In this document: in pieces, positions 3,097 to 60,131 of the stretch
Position numbering within the stretch: position 1 is the first letter of the stretch
How the letters are laid out: the number at the start of each line of letters is the position of its first letter
Source: Minisyncoccota bacterium
GTDB lineage: Bacteria; Patescibacteriota; Minisyncoccia; Phycocordibacterales; JACRKE01
Reading direction: 5' to 3'
NCBI GenBank assembly: GCA_041660505.1
Contig: JBAZWG010000001.1
Location: 23,758 to 87,757 of the forward strand
Length of the DNA: 64,000 nucleotides
The notes under the pieces: model-generated
The model's database searches: none
What the model saw: only the letters and a program-made list of their open reading frames with translations
What the model was told of the DNA's origin: nothing
Position numbers and translations under genes: made by a program

Positions 3097-3444
3097 CTTT
3101 CGATTATATCATAATAATCCATAGCCCGTATTTGACGCAAAATTTTGGGTGTGGTACTATGACGCCTTGTTTTTGTACGCACCCGAGACACAATACTGCT
3201 TTGCAGCGGAGGATTTATGTGGAGAATTGTTAGAGATGATTCGCGGCCGATACCCGCATCCCCAATCGAATTCTTCACTGAATTCATGAGGGACGATCCG
3301 GTTGCCGGCTGGGCGCTGGTTTTGAGCGCTGTCGCGCTCGCGATCAGTATCGCCGGCCAGTTTGCCGGCGTGGTTCATCCCTAGCCGCGTCCTCTCGGGC
3401 GCCCAATTCGACGGGAGCACAACACTCCCGTCGTACACAAAGGA

Positions 3445-3840: not shown

Positions 3841-4389
3841 TTGACGGAGCATCTGATACGTGATATTATACATTTCGACTTCTTGTTCCTTACCAAGCTT
3901 ACTGTAGGAGGAAAGCCGATGCCCGGTCACATGTCTAATTCTGAAGAGTTACTACCACTCCTCCCTATGCCGGCTGATAACGAGGTGTTCGAATTGACGC
4001 TCGACGGCGACCTCGCCACCAATCAGCCTAGCGCCATGATCGCCGAGTTCGTCAGTGGGCATGGGGAGTTCGAGTACAGAGGGCGACTTATCGTTGGCAT
4101 AGAGACGCGCCGCTTCAGGTGGGTATCTATTGGCAGGCAGTTTGGCCTCGCCACAGTGAAGCGAGCACTGGCGGGGCAGAAAGTTCCTGAATGCCAATGG
4201 CTGAACGCCGTCGTGGCAAAGTACGAGATAACTCCGCACCTGCGAGGTATAGCCAACGCCTCGTGGGTCTCGCCCGACTTCCACGCCAACCTGTTCCCGT
4301 ACATAAATTCAGGCGGGAACATCAGCCTCGAGTTTCCTGGTGTCCATATGGGCGGGTATTGGCGGTGGCTGGTCGAAATGGAGGAATGA
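3841..4389 (+). CDS. Hypothetical protein, GC-rich, adjacent to tRNA-Val duplication
   Basis: 182-aa ORF (true start may be internal M at 3919/3931). GC content clearly above flanks. Followed by hairpin plus T-rich terminator. Confidence 0.5.
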   Translation: MTEHLIRDIIHFDFLFLTKLTVGGKPMPGHMSNSEELLPLLPMPADNEVFELTLDGDLATNQPSAMIAEFVSGHGEFEYRGRLIVGIETRRFRWVSIGRQFGLATVKRALAGQKVPECQWLNAVVAKYEITPHLRGIANASWVSPDFHANLFPYINSGGNISLEFPGVHMGGYWRWLVEMEE

Positions 4390-5692: not shown

Positions 5693-5929
5693 ATGATGAA
5701 CTATTCGAATTTTGGAACTATGGGATTCGGTTGGGTCGTGAGCCTAATTGGCACACTCTGGATTATACTTTTAATAGCAGCGATGATCGCCCTGATTAAA
5801 TATCTTATGGGCGAGATTTCCGACACCAACCGCAAGCACCGTTCACCGATGGAAATGGTCAAGGAGCGTTATGCCAAGGGCGACATCGACAAGAAGGAAT
5901 TCGACACCTTGCGCAAAGACCTGAAATAA
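5693..5929 (+). CDS. SHOCT-domain small membrane protein
   Basis: One TM helix then ERYAKGDIDKKEFDTLRKDL, typical of the SHOCT short C-terminal domain. Confidence 0.7.
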   Translation: MMNYSNFGTMGFGWVVSLIGTLWIILLIAAMIALIKYLMGEISDTNRKHRSPMEMVKERYAKGDIDKKEFDTLRKDLK

Positions 5930-6716: not shown

Positions 6717-7475
6717 ATGTCTAAATACTATTCAGGCAAACGCAGTAGAAATATTTATGAATCCGACTCGAAGACACCGTTCCGTTTGAGCCGTTCTAAA
6801 ATAGATTTATTTTTAAACTGTAAGCGCTGTTTCTATCTAGACAGAAAGCTTGGCGTTGGTCAACCGCCCGGATACCCTTTCAGTCTTAACTCTGCCGTTG
6901 ATACTTTATTAAAAAAAGAATTTGATATTCACCGTGCCGCACATACGCCACATCCGATGATGTCGGCTTACGGCTTGGATGCTATTCCATTTCATCATGA
7001 GAAGATGGATGAGTGGCGCGACGCGCTACGCGGAGGCATTACATATACTGATCCGGAAACTAACTTCTATGTCACAGGCGGAGTTGATGATGTCTGGCGT
7101 CATGCACCGGAAGGCCAGCTCATAATAGTAGACTATAAGGCCACGTCTAAGACGTCTGAAGTATCGTTGGATGCCGACTGGCAGATCGGTTACAAACGCC
7201 AAATGGAAGTGTACCAATGGCTCTTCCGTATGAACGGCTTCGATGTATCCGAAACAGGCTACTTCGTCTACTGCAACGGCGATACCGACAAAGAAGCCTT
7301 CGACGGTAAACTTGAGTTCAATATCAAGCTCATTCCATATAAAGGCGACCCGAGCTGGATACCTCAAACGCTCAAAGATATCAAATCGTGTCTCGAATCC
7401 GCAGATTTGCCAGATTCGAGTCCTGATTGCGACTATTGTCTATATAGAAAGCTAACTAAAGAATATGAAAGGTAA
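6717..7475 (+). CDS. PD-(D/E)XK nuclease, RecB/Cas4-like with Cys pairs
   Basis: GGVDDVW ... IIVDYKATSK ... RQMEVYQWL (D / DxK / QxxxY motifs of RecB-family nucleases). N-terminal CKRC and C-terminal CDYC. Start 3 nt after the methyltransferase stop. Confidence 0.7.
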   Translation: MSKYYSGKRSRNIYESDSKTPFRLSRSKIDLFLNCKRCFYLDRKLGVGQPPGYPFSLNSAVDTLLKKEFDIHRAAHTPHPMMSAYGLDAIPFHHEKMDEWRDALRGGITYTDPETNFYVTGGVDDVWRHAPEGQLIIVDYKATSKTSEVSLDADWQIGYKRQMEVYQWLFRMNGFDVSETGYFVYCNGDTDKEAFDGKLEFNIKLIPYKGDPSWIPQTLKDIKSCLESADLPDSSPDCDYCLYRKLTKEYER

Positions 7476-7617
7476 TACGTATACCAAAGCAGGTAAAAAA
7501 CAAGGCCGGCCGGCATTCCGCACCGCGTCAGTCTATCGCAATAACAAAGGCGTGAAGACTCGCGCGATAAAAGCCTCGTTCAACGGCTTCAGCGGGAATC
7601 AAAAATTTCCAAAATAA
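7465..7617 (+). CDS. Possible small basic protein (50 aa), unannotated
   Basis: MKGNTYTKAGKKQGRPAFRTASVYRNNKGVKTRAIKASFNGFSGNQKFPK. Overlaps the end of the nuclease gene in another frame. Below the ORF-track size cutoff. Confidence 0.2.
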   Translation: MKGNTYTKAGKKQGRPAFRTASVYRNNKGVKTRAIKASFNGFSGNQKFPK

Positions 7618-7622
7618 CCTTC

Positions 7623-7653
7623 AAATAGAGAGTTGAACTCTCTGAAATTAAGG
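7623..7653. repeat. REP-like palindrome family 1, copy 1 (core agagagttgaactctct)
   Basis: Perfect 8-1-8 palindrome with conserved trailing aaattaagg. One of 4 copies in the window. Confidence 0.85.
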
Positions 7654-7669
7654 ATAAAATAACTATTAC

Positions 7670-7960
7670 ATGAGCATACTATTGATTGTAGGAATAATTA
7701 TAAATACAATGGCTTTTGGAGTAATGGGGTTTCGTAATCAGAAACTAGGCATAAAAGTACCAAAAATATTGCTAAGAGAAATATTTAATATTCCAATTAC
7801 TGTTATTTACTATTTGAGTTTTGTAGTGATTTTACTTTCTCCTGATAGTTGGCTACAAAAAATAATAATAGCTTTATCAATGCAATTTTTGATTAACCAC
7901 ATTATCTGGGGATCTATAACTGGTATTGTTGCGGGTATAATAGTACGAAGGAATAAATAA
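7670..7960 (+). CDS. Small membrane protein (hypothetical) between REP copies
   Basis: 96 aa with 3 predicted TM segments. AT-rich. Bracketed by REP copies 1 and 2. Confidence 0.45.
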   Translation: MSILLIVGIIINTMAFGVMGFRNQKLGIKVPKILLREIFNIPITVIYYLSFVVILLSPDSWLQKIIIALSMQFLINHIIWGSITGIVAGIIVRRNK

Positions 7961-7985
7961 TAAGTAGTAATTCAGACTTTTCCAC

Positions 7986-8016
7986 AACTAGAGAGTTCAA
8001 CTCTCTATAATAAGGC
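7986..8016. repeat. REP-like palindrome family 1, copy 2 (centre base flipped: agagagttcaactctct)
   Basis: Same element with trailing ataataagg, 32 bp upstream of the transposase start. Confidence 0.85.
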
Positions 8017-8037
8017 TTTTTGTGATAAACTGATTTT

Positions 8038-8664
8038 ATGGACAGGGCACCAATTGAAGAAGACACATTTCATCATGTTTATAACCGTGGCGTTGATAAG
8101 CGAACGATCTTCGAAGACGACGCAGACCATCGAAGATTTATCCTATACCTGAATGTCTTGAATGACACACAGATTGAGAGCCCAAACACCTTTGAGGCGC
8201 TCGAGCGACGACATAAAGATTCACCACTTGGCGAGCGGTTGGTGAATATTTGCGCATTCTGTCTTATGCCTAACCATTTTCATCTATTGCTACACGAGCG
8301 TACACCTGGAGGAATAAGCAAATTTATGCAAAGACTGGGGACAGCATACACACTATATTTCAATGAGAAACATAAACGGAGCGGTGCATTGTTCCAGGGC
8401 AGATACAAAAACCGAATTATTGACGACGAGGAGTACTTGCTCCATGTCATTGATTATATACATTGCAATCCTAATTCAATCGCCGGAGTCGAGGAATATT
8501 TATGGTCCAGCTACCATGATTTTTGCGGAAGCAAAAAGTTTAAACAATTACTGGGAACAGATGTATTATCCGAGTTTACCGAAATTCCAAAGAACTATGC
8601 TTCTTGGTTAAGGTCGCGAGGCAATTTTTCTGAAATAAAGCATATTACGATCGATGAAAGCTAA
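8038..8664 (+). CDS. IS200-like / REP-associated tyrosine transposase (Y1 HUH, RAYT), copy 1
   Basis: HHVYNRG ... NHFHLLLH (HuH) ... GRYKNRIIDDEEYLLHVIDYIHCNP (catalytic Tyr region), about 208 aa. Confidence 0.85.
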   Translation: MDRAPIEEDTFHHVYNRGVDKRTIFEDDADHRRFILYLNVLNDTQIESPNTFEALERRHKDSPLGERLVNICAFCLMPNHFHLLLHERTPGGISKFMQRLGTAYTLYFNEKHKRSGALFQGRYKNRIIDDEEYLLHVIDYIHCNPNSIAGVEEYLWSSYHDFCGSKKFKQLLGTDVLSEFTEIPKNYASWLRSRGNFSEIKHITIDES

Positions 8665-8674
8665 AATATCCTTT

Positions 8675-8705
8675 AAATAGAGAGTTGAACTCTCTAGGAT
8701 AAGGT
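8675..8705. repeat. REP-like palindrome family 1, copy 3
   Basis: aaatagagagttgaactctctaggataagg. Overlaps the stop of the minus-strand DUF218 gene. Confidence 0.85.
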
Positions 8706-27250: not shown

Positions 27251-27338
27251 ACGCCCTATTCACGCACGAAAACTCCGGTCAATCACTGACCGGAGTTGCA
27301 GTTTCCATGACATTTTAAAAACATTAATTAATACTAAT

Positions 27339-27372
27339 ACATCATTTCTGTGCTATAGCAGATATCTGATGT
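27339..27372. promoter_or_regulatory. Composite palindrome ACATCAT-N5-TGCTATAGCA-N6-TGATGT (copy 1)
   Basis: Outer 6-bp inverted arms around a perfect inner 10-bp palindrome. Second copy at 27960-27993 on the other side of the PaaX-like gene. Confidence 0.4.
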
Positions 27373-27380
27373 AATAGTAG

Positions 27381-27941
27381 TTAGTTGAGTTTGAAGTGGT
27401 CGCGCAATTTATTATCGGGCGAGATATCGGAGCGCATATAATAGACATGTTCCGGAATATCGAAGTAGTTAATAACAAAATTGATCTCATTTTCACAATC
27501 GAACGGAAATACAAAAACGCTTTTCTGGAACTCCTTGAATCCAAGTCTTTTTAGAGTGTGCCTTAGCGCGTCACGCGTCCTTTTGCTCTCTTCTGGAACA
27601 TCGAACAAAACTACGCGCCAGCGACCGTCCCACTTCTTCTTCGGCTTAAGCTTTAAATTTTTGAACTCCTGGTCTAGGAAATATGCCCTCCCTTTATTCG
27701 TAAGGCGCACCTCCTCAAGATTATTCGTCTTTATCCGCTCAACAAGTCCGCGCGCTTGATAGCGTTCGAGTAATACATAGAGCTTCTTGCGATCGATCTT
27801 ATACCAGATCTTATCGCAAACATTAGCCATTCGCCTACGCTCATAGTTCGTTCGTTGAAAAGCGAGAAAAGACTTAGCCGCCAATAGTGAAAGTATTTGA
27901 AATGAAAACTTGGTCGAGTCTTTAATGTCTTTGACTATCAT
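27381..27941 (-). CDS. PaaX-like winged-helix regulator (wHTH + Cas2-like C-terminal fold)
   Basis: KWDGRWRVVLFDVPEESKRTRDALRHTLKRLGFKEFQKSVFVFP resembles the PaaX C-terminal region. N-terminal HTH-like segment. Confidence 0.55.
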   Translation of the reverse strand: MIVKDIKDSTKFSFQILSLLAAKSFLAFQRTNYERRRMANVCDKIWYKIDRKKLYVLLERYQARGLVERIKTNNLEEVRLTNKGRAYFLDQEFKNLKLKPKKKWDGRWRVVLFDVPEESKRTRDALRHTLKRLGFKEFQKSVFVFPFDCENEINFVINYFDIPEHVYYMRSDISPDNKLRDHFKLN

Positions 27942-27959
27942 AATTCGATTCTATCAACT

Positions 27960-27993
27960 ACATCATCCCTCTGCTATAGCAACGAAGTGATGT
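27960..27993. promoter_or_regulatory. Composite palindrome copy 2, extended by outer tatcaac/gttgata arms (27952-28001)
   Basis: ACATCATccctcTGCTATAGCAacgaagTGATGT immediately upstream of the PaaX-like start. Candidate operator. Confidence 0.4.
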
Positions 27994-28027
27994 ATGTTGA
28001 TAACTGGAGAAACGGGGGCGGGGCGGG

Positions 28028-43085: not shown

Positions 43086-43769
43086 CTACCAGCCAAGTTT
43101 ATCGAGGGCGCTTCGCGCGGCGTCTTGCTCCGCTTCTTGTTTGGACGGGCCTTTGCCTTTTGTAATCAGATCCGGGCCAAGGAAGACGCCTACGGTAAAG
43201 ACTTTGTCATGGTCGGGACCTTCTTCGCCCACCACTTCGTAGCGCGGGGTGACACTGCGTTTTTCTTGTGACACTTCTTGCAGAGCACTCTTTGCGTCAC
43301 GCCACAACTTCTTTTTTACTATCTCATCGGTTTTTGGAATTAAAGTACGGGCGATAAAGTCCTTGGCTACAGCATAACCTTGATCAAGATATATAGCGCC
43401 AATGATTGCCTCATAGGCGTTGGCCAATATCGACTGGCGTGCGCGTCCGGTATCTTTGGCTTCACCCTTAGACATTAGCAAGAACTTCTGAACGTCGAGC
43501 GATGACGAAATCTGAGAAATACTCACTGTATTCACCAACGCCGCTCTATATGCTGTGAGCTCGCCCTCCCACACTTTGGGGTATTTGTGATAGAGATATT
43601 CCGTCACCACTAATTCTAAAACTGCATCGCCAAGAAATTCAAGCCGTTCATTGTGCGAAAGCTGGAAGCTGGGATTCTCATTTAAATATGACCGATGCGT
43701 CAAAGCCTGCTGGATATATTCTCTATTTTGGAACTGTACGCCGATGGTCTTTTCGAATTTTTCTAGCAT
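43086..43769 (-). CDS. rnc: Ribonuclease III
   Basis: ERLEFLGDAVLELVVTEYLY signature. C-terminal dsRBD. Confidence 0.95.
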   Translation of the reverse strand: MLEKFEKTIGVQFQNREYIQQALTHRSYLNENPSFQLSHNERLEFLGDAVLELVVTEYLYHKYPKVWEGELTAYRAALVNTVSISQISSSLDVQKFLLMSKGEAKDTGRARQSILANAYEAIIGAIYLDQGYAVAKDFIARTLIPKTDEIVKKKLWRDAKSALQEVSQEKRSVTPRYEVVGEEGPDHDKVFTVGVFLGPDLITKGKGPSKQEAEQDAARSALDKLGW

Positions 43770-43837
43770 AAAATTATTTTGTCTTAGAAGGCGAGGCCTT
43801 GAGCATCTAGAAGGCCTCGCCTTCTAATTCCTAGTCA

Positions 43838-44758: not shown

Positions 44759-44806
44759 GTCGAAATTTATTGTACCCCAGAATTCAAAAAGGTTCAAGCA
44801 AAACAA

Positions 44807-44842
44807 GAGGTTCGACCTTTTAGATGCTCAAGGTCGAACCTC
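44807..44842 (-). terminator. Palindromic terminator family gaggttcgacctt / aaggtcgaacctc (copy 1), downstream of rpmF
   Basis: 13-bp perfect stem with A-run on the plus strand upstream (U-run for the minus transcript). Near-identical copy at 60067-60102. Confidence 0.65.
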
Positions 44843-44860
44843 TAAACGTGAGTGGAAAAA

Positions 44861-48654: not shown

Positions 48655-48665
48655 CTCTTTTCATA

Positions 48666-48718
48666 GCTGCCGGAGGAAGTTGTCTTAACACCGCTTCCAA
48701 GGGCAGCTTTCTTCGTTT
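48666..48718 (+). terminator. 53-bp terminator-like element B (identical to C)
   Basis: agctgccggaggaagttgtcttaacaccgcttccaagggcagctttcttcgtt. Nested stems agctgcc/ggcagct and ggaag/cttcc, then a U-rich tail. Confidence 0.65.
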
Positions 48719-48726
48719 ATATTAAT

Positions 48727-48757
48727 ACTTAGAGAGCTGAACTCTCTAAAATAGGGG
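48727..48757. repeat. REP-like palindrome family 1, copy 4 (agagagctgaactctct, one mismatch)
   Basis: Same element and trailing aaaatagg context as the copies at 7.6-8.7 kb, 40 kb away. Confidence 0.8.
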
Positions 48758-48849: not shown

Positions 48850-49119
48850 ATGAAAACCGAGGACCTGGCAGTCATGATAAAAAAGCAATTCGACGTTATG
48901 GGTATGCAACTCAGAAATATTGATTATGGGATAGAAAAACTTGAGGTCAAGAACGACAACCTCGAGAACCAATTGACACAGGTTCGAGCCGATCTAACGA
49001 AAGTAAAACAGGATGTTGAGTTCATCCGTGAAAACAATGTGTTTAAAATCGAACACGAGGACTTACGGTCGCGCGTAGGAAAGATTGAATCGAAACTCAA
49101 GCTTCGTTTGAAGGTTTAG
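48850..49119 (+). CDS. Small coiled-coil protein, paralog of 23666..23932
   Basis: 89 aa, heptad-rich. Shared KVKQDVEFIRENN / HEDLRSRVGKIESK blocks. Confidence 0.5.
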   Translation: MKTEDLAVMIKKQFDVMGMQLRNIDYGIEKLEVKNDNLENQLTQVRADLTKVKQDVEFIRENNVFKIEHEDLRSRVGKIESKLKLRLKV

Positions 49120-49224: not shown

Positions 49225-49380
49225 ATGATCTGTGTAGTGAAGGTGAATTATCCCAAATGCAAGAAGTGTGGCTGTGATACAGAGCGCACCGGAGGATGGC
49301 GAGGCGATGTTGGTCTCGATTACCTTCGATGTACAAAGTGCGGCCACAAACAAACTAGCCGGGTTTATACCTGGCGATGA
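49225..49380 (+). CDS. Zinc-ribbon mini-protein (51 aa), unannotated
   Basis: MICVVKVNYPKCKKCGCDTERTGGWRGDVGLDYLRCTKCGHKQTSRVYTWR with CxxC...CxxC. SD ggaggt upstream. Followed by element C. Confidence 0.35.
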   Translation: MICVVKVNYPKCKKCGCDTERTGGWRGDVGLDYLRCTKCGHKQTSRVYTWR

Positions 49381-49396: not shown

Positions 49397-49449
49397 AGCT
49401 GCCGGAGGAAGTTGTCTTAACACCGCTTCCAAGGGCAGCTTTCTTCGTT
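49397..49449 (+). terminator. 53-bp terminator-like element C (identical to B)
   Basis: Exact 53-bp repeat of 48666-48718. Confidence 0.65.
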
Positions 49450-49471
49450 AGACCTTATTATTAGCCAAGTT

Positions 49472-49490
49472 ATCAACACCGAGTGTTGAT
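49472..49490. repeat. Palindrome family 2 (atcaacac-cga-gtgttgat), 5' copy
   Basis: 8-bp perfect arms with a 3-nt loop, about 22 bp upstream of the second transposase ATG. Confidence 0.8.
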
Positions 49491-49512
49491 ATTTCGTGAT
49501 ATACTCTCAAGT

Positions 49513-50193
49513 ATGAGAGTTATTGAAATTTGCGAGGATGAGTACTACCATGTTTTGAATCGAGGAATTAATAAGCAAAAAATCTTTCTTGATGATCGAG
49601 ACCGTGCTCGGTTTTTATTTCTTATCTTGTTTTTGCAGTCTCCTGCCCTGGTAAATAATATGAGTGATTTCGCCGCGAGATTTACAGATCTTATTCTTGC
49701 TGATGAATACAACATACTTGCGGTGAAAGAACTAGATGAACTTTGGAATAAAATGAAGGAGTCGAGGTGTGTGGAGCTCCTGGCGTTTGCACTTATGGGG
49801 AACCACTTTCATATCGCCGTTCATGCACTCAAGGATTCAGGAATAGCAACCTATTTGCAACGAGTGCAGAACGCGTATACAAAATACTTTAATATAAAAC
49901 ACGATCGGACGGGACATTTATTCCAGGGACCATACAAAGTCGTACACCAACCAGACGACGAACGTCTCATGATGCTTACTGCGTATATCCACCATAACCC
50001 GAATGAGGTTTTAGATAGTAGAGCTGAAGTTGAAGCATTCAAATGGTCTAGCTACCAGGATTACCACAACAATAATCGCTGGGGCGAGTTATTAAAGCCA
50101 GAAATAGTACTCGAACAATTTTCCAATCCCGCGGAATACCTAGAATTCGTTAACGATGGCAACGTAAAATCAACACCGAGTGTTGATAAATAG
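49513..50193 (+). CDS. IS200-like / REP-associated tyrosine transposase (Y1 HUH), copy 2
   Basis: YYHVLNRG ... GNHFHIAVH (HuH) ... GPYKVVHQPDDERLMMLTAYIHHNP (Tyr region). Diverged from copy 1. Confidence 0.85.
   Translation: MRVIEICEDEYYHVLNRGINKQKIFLDDRDRARFLFLILFLQSPALVNNMSDFAARFTDLILADEYNILAVKELDELWNKMKESRCVELLAFALMGNHFHIAVHALKDSGIATYLQRVQNAYTKYFNIKHDRTGHLFQGPYKVVHQPDDERLMMLTAYIHHNPNEVLDSRAEVEAFKWSSYQDYHNNNRWGELLKPEIVLEQFSNPAEYLEFVNDGNVKSTPSVDK
50169..50187. repeat. Palindrome family 2, 3' copy (inside the last codons of the transposase)
   Basis: Identical atcaacaccgagtgttgat. Confidence 0.8.
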
Positions 50194-59954: not shown

Positions 59955-60066
59955 AGGTTACAACATATTAACACGTTTCAATCTTTTAGACATCCGGTGT
60001 TGCTAAAATTGAGCCTGTAAAGAGTATGGGATGGAATATACTTGCCATGTTTTTGTAAACAAAAAA

Positions 60067-60102
60067 GAGGTTCGACCTTTTGGATGCCTAAGGTCGAACC
60101 TC
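60067..60102 (-). terminator. Palindromic terminator family gaggttcgacctt (copy 2), downstream of the DUF5679 gene
   Basis: Same 13-bp stem as 44807-44842. A-run on the plus-strand 5' side. Confidence 0.65.
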
Positions 60103-60131
60103 TGGATTCTGTCTACTAAGTAACAGCTCTG

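Follow-up and report, generated by a model that had tools for sequence, protein, structure and literature searches.

A Y1 HUH nuclease gene and its private palindrome in a Patescibacteria genome: a probable REPtron/TIRtron-type module

The T1 locus and its palindrome

We analysed a stretch of 64,000 nucleotides from a Minisyncoccota genome (contig JBAZWG010000001.1, positions 23,758 to 87,757; this whole stretch is called the window) and focus on one of its genes, T1, which encodes a homologue of Y1 HUH tyrosine endonucleases/transposases and is bracketed by copies of a short palindrome, REP-T1 (Table 1). The sequence AGAGAGTT-G-AACTCTCT occurs at 7627-7643 and 8679-8695 and AGAGAGTT-C-AACTCTCT at 7990-8006; with an outer T/A pair added, copies 2 and 3 become perfect 19-nt palindromes, TAGAGAGTT[G/C]AACTCTCTA. 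A fourth copy with one stem mismatch (AGAGAGCTGAACTCTCT) lies at 48731-48747, 40 kb from T1. When up to 3 mismatches are allowed, the window holds four matches against 0.11 expected, a number that none of 100 shuffles reached. Copy 2 is separated from the T1 start codon by 31 nt, and the T1 stop codon from copy 3 by 14 nt. Copy 3 is a direct repeat of copy 1 at 31 of 33 positions, 5′ flank included, and the similarity of copy 4 to copy 2 runs ~20 nt further 3′ than the palindrome. The same arrangement of the locus is found when the sample is assembled independently (Logan).

An earlier reading of this DNA, made from its letters alone (the sequence-only reading), had reported the palindrome at 7627, 7990 and 8679, a transposase that it brackets at distances of 32 and 15 bp, and a 96-residue open reading frame (ORF) between copies 1 and 2. 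The three positions can be read directly from the sequence, the distances are essentially right, copies 2 and 3 (from 7989 and 8678) do enclose the Y1 gene, and the small ORF, here ORF96, is present at 7670-7960. A conserved aataagg tail was also claimed; it is exact after copy 2 and only approximate at the other copies, the tails of the four being GAAATTAAGG, ATAATAAGG, AGGATAAGG and AAAATAGGGG. At copies 1 and 3 the AAGG of the tail pairs with CCTT upstream to give a longer hairpin. The suspicion of a genome like those of the Candidate Phyla Radiation (CPR) was borne out by a protein identical to T1 on a Candidatus Paceibacterota contig at NCBI, and the palindrome is not confined to this locus, as copy 4 (from 48730) and sister families with distant copies demonstrate.

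Table 1. Coordinates of the Y1 genes, palindromes and ORF96 in the window
Feature	Coordinates	Strand	Remarks
REP-T1 copy 1 (TAGAGAGTT-G-AACTCTCTg)	7626..7644		9 nt past the stop of a 50-aa ORF
ORF96, gene for a 96-aa small membrane protein	7670..7960	+	
REP-T1 copy 2 (centre C)	7989..8007		TATAAT box at 8006-8011 abutting
T1, Y1 HUH tyrosine endonuclease/transposase homologue, 208 aa	8038-8664	+	HUH N79-H-F-H82; Tyr Y140-IHC-N144-P
REP-T1 copy 3 (centre G)	8678..8696		8 nt ahead of the stop of the convergent DUF218 gene
REP-P0004 inverted doublet	43785..43826		spacer between NusB-NUDIX and RNase III genes
REP-T1 copy 4	48730..48748		intergenic, upstream of an 89-aa coiled-coil ORF
REP-T2 upstream copy (TATCAACAC-CGA-GTGTTGATA)	49471..49491		~22 nt before the T2 ATG
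T2, second Y1 HUH paralog, 226 aa	49513..50193	+	MGNHFHIAVH, YIHHNP; 35% identical to T1
REP-T2 downstream copy	50169..50187		overlaps the last codons of T2

We interpret the T1 locus, with a probability of roughly 0.7, as a REPtron/TIRtron-type module, that is, a resident, vertically inherited Y1 HUH gene together with its private 19-nt palindrome. REPtrons and TIRtrons, and genomes with several genes for TIRYTs or for tyrosine transposases associated with repetitive extragenic palindromes (REPs), known as RAYTs, each gene having private repeats, have already been published (PMC6006769, PMC3733652). Records of such domesticated transposases and of their palindromes come mainly from Proteobacteria, Cyanobacteria and Bacteroidetes; the surveys by Quentin et al. 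(PMC6006769) and Di Nocera et al. (PMC3733652) contain no mention of Parcubacteria or Patescibacteria, and among the papers listed by a full-text literature search on RAYT, REPIN and Patescibacteria, none contained 'Patescibacteria'. What is new here is a clean RAYT/TIRYT-type module in a lineage, the CPR, that had not previously been surveyed.

Affiliation of T1 and stability of its locus

T1 carries the motifs LMPNHFHLLLH and YIHCNP and matches Pfam Y1_Tnp at 38.4 bits (cut-off 23). Its sole NCBIfam match is REP_Tyr_transpos at 49.9 bits, below the 80-bit cut-off of this RAYT equivalog (NF047646), on which the second Y1 protein of the window, T2, scores 29.7 bits. A phmmer search of T1 against PDB sequences returned no match, and a family profile gave weak, near-equal matches to ISDra2 TnpA (E 0.038) and TnpA_REP (E 1.2), so that sequence alone was unable to place T1 and a comparison of folds was needed. 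The AlphaFold (AF2) model of T1, which is of good quality (pLDDT 83.6), finds its best PDB match in 4er8, the structure of Escherichia coli TnpA_REP bound to a REP hairpin (E 2.3e-6; TM-score 0.67 by target length), ahead of the transposases of IS608, ISDra2 and IS200 with E ~2e-4 or worse. Identity in the structural alignment of T1 with TnpA_REP is ~15%. In a 20-member family alignment, N79, H80, H82, Y140, H142, N144 and S157-S158 are among the invariant residues, and the consensus motifs are LMPNHFHLL, LFQG, YIHLNP and WSSY, from which T1 deviates with YIHCNP. Pfam finds only Y1_Tnp, with no distal helix-turn-helix (HTH) or DnaA_C domain, in T1, T2 and the homologues P0003, P0004 and P0025 (see below), and the C-terminal 50 residues of T1 form only short helices in the model.

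In the TnpA_Y1 superfamily, the RAYTs belong to class 2, which is distinguished by Y---NP from the IS200 transposases with Y---Q (Quentin et al. 2018, PMC6006769). Its subclass 2.1, with the motifs NH[YF]H, FQ, Y[IV]HLNP and SS (Table 1 of PMC6006769), equals the group 1 RAYTs of Bertels et al. (PMC5581495) and is probably also the TIRYTs of Di Nocera et al. (PMC3733652). The motif set of T1, including the proximal SS, agrees with the subclass 2.1 row. A homologue on a Rhodospirillum rubrum plasmid (36% identity, E 7e-18) likewise has 2.1-type motifs (MTNHIHLL, LWQGRYK, YIELNP and WSSY) and is flanked, ~40 nt before its ATG and directly after its stop, by GGGGTC[A/T]GACCCC, a palindrome that contains Di Nocera's GGGGWSAS motif of terminal inverted repeats (TIRs). 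Because of its motif set and its nearest relatives outside the CPR, T1 is placed with subclass 2.1: judged from sequence, it is a class 2 TnpA_Y1 protein closest to the TIRYTs. The same motifs, and a homologue with the TIR layout, also suggest kinship with the TIRYTs in working mode.

The resemblance to TIRYTs and subclass 2.1 extends to private, partly or wholly self-complementary repeats at fixed distances from the gene, to the possibility of several divergent genes per genome with different repeats each, and to repeat families described as 'moderately abundant' (the flanking 16-mers of group 1 number ~12 per replicon; PMC5581495). There are also differences. At 208 aa T1 is short, and a distal HTH (Bac_DnaA_C, HTH_23, HTH_28) could not be detected in it; REP-T1 lacks the GGGGWSAS seen in the majority of described TIRYT cases, a motif that only the repeat of P0025, GGGGTAAGG, approaches; and Quentin et al. 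(PMC6006769) report no REP-like structures for subclass 2.1, whereas the CPR clade has perfect hairpins and dispersed copies.

From the RAYT side the correspondence is likewise partial. Like E. coli TnpA_REP (PDB 4er8; Ton-Hoang 2012; Messing 2012, PMC3479197), its best fold match, T1 has Y---NP and is a single-copy-type gene between cognate palindromes that occur elsewhere too, inverted doublets included, and its chemistry would presumably also take place on hairpins of single-stranded DNA (ssDNA). In contrast to E. coli, the T1 system lacks the GTAG guide tetranucleotide, the stems in the T1 family are perfect with loops of 1-5 nt rather than imperfect and bulged, and a handful of copies seen stands against hundreds of REPs. 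The foot of the REP-T1 hairpin reads (A/C/T)TAGAGAG, GT[AG]G being absent, and a GT[AG]G foot was likewise not found in the palindromes of the family. Relatives of T1 in which the gene contains its own palindrome in frame recall subclass 2.4 RAYTs, but the published in-gene REPs of that subclass, described as unique to it, lie between HUH and Tyr (PMC6006769). In sum, T1 is not a REP-RAYT member in the strict sense, having no GT[AG]G foot, 49.9 instead of 80 bits and a low number of copies seen in the 64 kb sampled. What stands of the 'REP-RAYT module' proposed by the sequence-only reading is thus the RAYT-like Y1 HUH enzyme with cognate flanking palindromes. The proposal of an IS200-like tyrosine transposase survives in its Y1 HUH part (NHFH, YIHCNP), not in its IS200 part, given Y---NP, the RAYT model as sole NCBIfam match and TnpA_REP as best fold.

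The behaviour of the locus in relatives bears on the same point. A groundwater metagenome contig (L204) has the gene order of the T1 locus: a PD-(D/E)XK nuclease, a small basic ORF, the Y1 gene (P0003), DUF218 on the opposite strand and an HtrA-like protease. Identities between the two loci are 81% for the PD-(D/E)XK nuclease, 70% for the Y1 protein, 67% for DUF218 and 77% for the HtrA-like protease. For the Y1 gene, synonymous divergence is saturated (pS 0.90) and nonsynonymous divergence is low (pN 0.21), close to the pN of the neighbours. The conserved synteny, saturated pS and low pN point to purifying selection and to co-inheritance with housekeeping genes. The palindrome has changed along with the gene: TAGAAGGTT-S-AACCTTCTA in L204 differs from TAGAGAGTT-S-AACTCTCTA in the window by two double substitutions that are compensatory and are shared by the two flanking copies, and in two further close relatives, P0002 and the homologue in L125, the AGAAGGTT core is kept.

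An autonomous insertion sequence (IS) of the IS200/IS605 type, in which gene and terminal hairpins move together with ORF96 as a passenger, is very unlikely in the light of these comparisons. It would account for the Pfam name of the domain ('Transposase IS200 like'), for the Y1 HUH fold and hairpins at element ends that T1 has in common with IS200/IS605 TnpA (IS608, ISDra2; subclass 1.1), for hairpins that lie mostly at gene ends, for the many homologues on short contigs, one of which ends inside a hairpin, and for an upstream neighbour of P0002 that differs from those of T1 and P0003. The diagnostic features of such elements are nevertheless not seen at T1: the tyrosine motif is Y---NP rather than Y---Q, the middle HUH residue is F and not V/I (H[VI]H; PMC6006769, Table 1), and the same symmetric palindrome stands at both ends in place of distinct left and right subterminal hairpins. 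Nor does the neighbourhood, with its PD-(D/E)XK, DUF218 and HtrA-like genes, include the frequent partner tnpB. Several near-identical copies would be usual, but no near-identical T1 duplicates were seen in the genome, where paralogs are 35-66% identical and have different palindromes; solo and doublet palindromes occur without a gene; and synteny with housekeeping neighbours has persisted at 70% identity with synonymous sites saturated. As far as sequence comparison can tell, T1 does not behave as an active insertion sequence would. Hardly any relatives occur in a phage collection (one match, at 33%), PHROGs has no match for T1 or ORF96, and the relatives found on plasmids by tblastn are distant (31-36% identity) and in Proteobacteria.

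The P0002 contig (L215) ends within the downstream palindrome (1093-1113), and contigs of 1-2 kb carry several of the other homologues, which may reflect assembly breaks at repeated palindromes or low coverage.

Palindromes across the family and their spread

More than 4,000 relatives of T1 are detectable, nearly all from Parcubacteria/Paceibacteria-type sources. We examined a set of 84 loci, composed of 80 metagenomic loci and the four paralogs of this genome (T1, T2, P0004 and P0025). At least two copies of one gene-specific palindrome lie within 250 nt of the gene in 64 of them; in 58 a palindrome falls between -100 and +25 of the ATG, usually with its centre near -30, in 55 one falls in the stop-codon region, and upstream and stop-codon copies come together in 49. 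The perfect stem has a median of 9 bp and a maximum of 19, with a formal loop of 1, 3 or 5 nt. Purines dominate the arm, in which tips like GGTT-N-AACC or GTC-N-GAC recur above a locus-specific lower stem. The same palindrome is found on both sides of the gene in ~60 of 70 usable homologous loci (~85%), above shuffle controls.

Short intergenic spacers close to gene 3′ ends, where copies are found, are also where chance palindromes or ordinary intrinsic terminators could happen to flank a gene. That explanation is refuted by the shuffle test in the window together with the both-sided occurrence in homologous loci, and a terminator scan flagged nothing at the palindrome copies, the hairpins having no T-run behind them; it now appears vanishingly improbable.

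The relative orientation of the loops in the two flanking copies is random, with 25 inverted and 24 direct cases. Together with flanks that are mostly uninformative, this indicates that the symmetric palindrome is the functional unit, and it makes the 'inverted orientation' criterion for REPtrons inapplicable. Flank orientation as a means of telling RAYT from IS200 was dropped, on account of the 25 to 24 split, the mostly ambiguous flanks and the symmetry of the palindrome.

The Y1 ORF itself holds its own palindrome in frame at ~+160..+205 nt, before HUH, in 26 of the 84 loci, and at ~+456..+488 nt, after the Tyr motif, in nine; these two sites are almost the sole internal positions used. Loci with in-gene palindromes include L171 (735-1412), L126, L152, L156, L186, L193 and L195, and a 900-bp stretch of L171 contains five identical copies of 23 nt. 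In one example the peptide footprint is QGSTL, from CAAGGTTCAACCTTG. None of T1, T2, P0004 and P0025 has a palindrome inside the gene.

Private palindromes also distinguish the paralogs within this genome. P0004 (66% identical to T1) and P0025 (49%) are encoded on the same 719,008-bp Paceibacterota contig as the identical T1 protein, and with T2 from the window this 719-kb genome holds at least four divergent paralogs; T1, T2, P0004 and P0025 are pairwise 35-66% identical and each has a different palindrome. REP-T2 reads ATCAACAC-CGA-GTGTTGAT (at 49472 and 50169), REP-P0004, whose gene lies outside the window, TAGAAGGC-GAG-GCCTTCTA, and REP-P0025 GGGGTAAGG-TTTCG-CCTTACTC. When T2 served as query for more paralogs of this genome, only T2 itself appeared among the best 120 matches. 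At NCBI, T2 is annotated only as a 177-aa version.

In 270 kb flanking homologues (the 80 metagenomic loci and the P0004 and P0025 contigs), 4.4 cognate palindromes per 100 kb are found at distances above 300 nt from the gene, ~87x the 0.05 per 100 kb of a non-cognate control. With distant solo copies and doublets, these rates indicate that the spreading of the palindromes is real, low-copy and apparently local, in agreement with reports on the repeats of group 1 and of TIRYTs (Bertels et al., PMC5581495; Di Nocera et al., PMC3733652). A scan of genome contigs with AGAGAGNTNAACTCTCT (15 specified bases) gave chance matches in unrelated phyla, none of those listed sharing 31-mers with the window.

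Two families illustrate where copies can settle. The REP-P0004 doublet in the window folds, as ssDNA, into a 17-bp hairpin (-19.7 kcal/mol, z -6.9). On its 7-kb contig (L002), REP-P0025 has six copies, the two flanks included. One is in frame in a 387-aa ORF, where it encodes the peptide GEGETLP, and an inverted doublet is in frame in the arginyl-tRNA synthetase (ArgRS) gene (…SGKVSPYPVGEGETLPG…), where solved ArgRS structures have, at the aligned place, a variable linker of similar length.

The RNase III gene (start at 43769, minus strand) begins 16 nt downstream of the REP-P0004 doublet, whose perfect hairpin, if transcribed, would plausibly be an RNase III substrate in that gene's own leader. 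In L002, REP-P0025 occupies 3398-3419, 4248-4269 and 5816-5863, in the 387-aa ORF, a spacer and ArgRS, respectively, and its in-frame copies recall the Rickettsia palindromic elements.

Mechanism, rivals and the foreign segment

By homology with E. coli TnpA_REP and with the TnpA proteins of IS608 and ISDra2, we propose that dimeric T1 would bind the palindrome extruded as an ssDNA hairpin, for example on the lagging-strand template, and would cleave and rejoin DNA beside the hairpin by means of an HUH-bound metal and Tyr140. At low frequency the palindrome might thereby be copied to new, mostly nearby sites while the gene stays put. Binding at the upstream copy may also autoregulate the T1 gene, as is suggested by the fact that this copy overlaps or abuts promoter-like elements. 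L204 has such a site, TTGAAC-17-TATAAT-6-ATG, and in the window the centre of copy 1 contributes to TTGAAC + 16 nt + TAAAAT ahead of ORF96. A scan for sigma-70 promoters round the locus gave 5 sites against 4.7 expected, not above chance, so an overlap of hairpin and promoter is something that we infer. An Rfam search of the window returned three tRNAs only.

The fixed distance of the upstream copy from the ATG and its overlap with promoter-like elements, the position of the downstream copy at the stop codon, the random loop orientation and the small number of copies would all suit a different function, in which the palindromes are duplex operator or terminator sites through which a dimer or another factor controls a regulon and nothing is mobilised. 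This duplex-operator/terminator view is the main rival, and it is weakened by the in-frame copies and the doublets: an operator makes little sense inside ArgRS, the 387-aa ORF or the Y1 gene, and REPIN-like inverted doublets are not expected of it either. T1 moreover has the fold and catalytic residues of ssDNA-hairpin endonucleases, with HUH and Tyr invariant in the 20-member alignment, the near-perfect stems of up to 19 bp are unlike operators, and neither the chance-level promoter scan nor hairpins without a T-run give it support. We consider it unlikely.

Several observations weigh against a resident module that spreads its hairpin. Hairpin binding and cleavage are attributed to T1 at ~15% identity to solved enzymes, and the random loop orientation fits a symmetric duplex site equally well; symmetric 'compensatory' changes, too, would be expected for a dimer-bound double-stranded operator. 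Only one REP-T1 copy lies far from the gene in the 64 kb sampled, in which REP-T2 has none beyond its two flanks, so T1's own palindrome qualifies only weakly as a 'dispersed REP family'. P0002, at 70% identity to T1, shares its palindrome with P0003, yet its upstream neighbour is a different one, which suggests that the gene-plus-palindrome unit may move occasionally. Finally, the polarity of the ORF96 difference described next, an apparent insertion here as opposed to a deletion in L204, is read from composition and one comparison.

The upstream palindrome of L204, which lies 22 nt ahead of the Y1 start codon there, aligns with copy 1 together with its 5′ flank; by this alignment, the window has 363 extra bp: a short leader, then ORF96, then palindrome copy 2. 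ORF96 is absent from the orthologous L204 locus, and its segment has a GC content of 27-29% against a window average of 48%. ORF96 encodes a genuine protein, though a rare one (20 relatives among 1.8 billion representatives and 8 in a larger collection), and the relatives are set in gene strings of 25-31% GC that adjoin phage-type integrases. The gene is 78% identical at the DNA level to one in a 28%-GC, integrase-bearing island, with the identity confined to the ORF. The low GC, the absence from L204 and the relatives in integrase islands make ORF96 look foreign. The REP-flanked cargo ORF of the sequence-only reading does, then, behave as captured foreign DNA, and ORF96 looks like a captured foreign gene lodged at the hairpin; leader, ORF96 and copy 2 would together represent an insertion at the ancestral upstream palindrome. 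Entry by HUH-mediated strand transfer, by insertion into a pre-existing doublet or by template switching is possible.

It is tempting to see a more general function in this, with the palindrome/Y1 pair as a gene-capture site at which HUH single-strand transfer pastes foreign ORFs by the hairpin and duplicates the hairpin in doing so, an outcome similar to that of integron attC cassettes, reached with a different enzyme. Two REP-T1 copies in inverted orientation enclose ORF96 exactly, L204 lacks the gene, copy 4 with the same 3′ leader precedes a block with the 89-aa and 51-aa ORFs, and palindromes stand in frame in relatives' Y1 genes (at two fixed sites) and, here, in ArgRS. We nevertheless regard this as a rather unlikely account of the pair.

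If the locus is a resident REPtron/TIRtron-type module, ultra-small CPR genomes (0.72 Mb) keep several divergent genes for Y1 nucleases, every one with its private hairpin, and the low-copy spread of these hairpins reaches essential genes too, in frame. The CPR clade would then supply subclass 2.1 with clean, perfectly palindromic candidate substrates, and the natural co-variation of protein and hairpin makes specificity rules testable in vitro. For annotation, 'transposase' labels on such genes in CPR genomes should not be counted as insertion sequences.

The block upstream of T2 has features of its own. Its 732 bp, directly upstream of T2, are bounded by a perfect direct repeat of 53 nt (48665-48717 and 49397-49449) that is a terminator-like hairpin in its own right, and they hold REP-T1 copy 4, the 89-aa coiled-coil ORF (48850-49119) and a 51-aa CxxC...CxxC zinc-ribbon ORF (49225-49380). 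The block looks like a recent duplication or insertion.

The 50-aa Lys/Arg-rich ORF that ends ahead of copy 1 (MKGNTYTKAGKKQGRPAFRTASVYRNNK...; 7465-7617) overlaps the PD-(D/E)XK stop codon and has no match in Pfam or NCBIfam. In a by-eye reading of the L204 DNA (~808-960) it appears conserved, and an unrelated 102-aa membrane ORF is inserted immediately ahead of it there.

Elsewhere in the window, an inverted doublet, AGAGGTTCGACCTT-N10-AAGGTCGAACCTCT, occurs in two 91% identical copies (44806-44843 and 60066-60103) in the style of Y1-associated palindromes; the window has no cognate Y1 gene for it, and it may belong to another paralog, encoded elsewhere in the genome. A 37-nt inverted repeat (27337-27373 and 27959-27995; 81% complementary, partly palindromic) brackets a minus-strand gene for a 186-aa protein with a PaaX central/Cas2-like domain (27381-27941).

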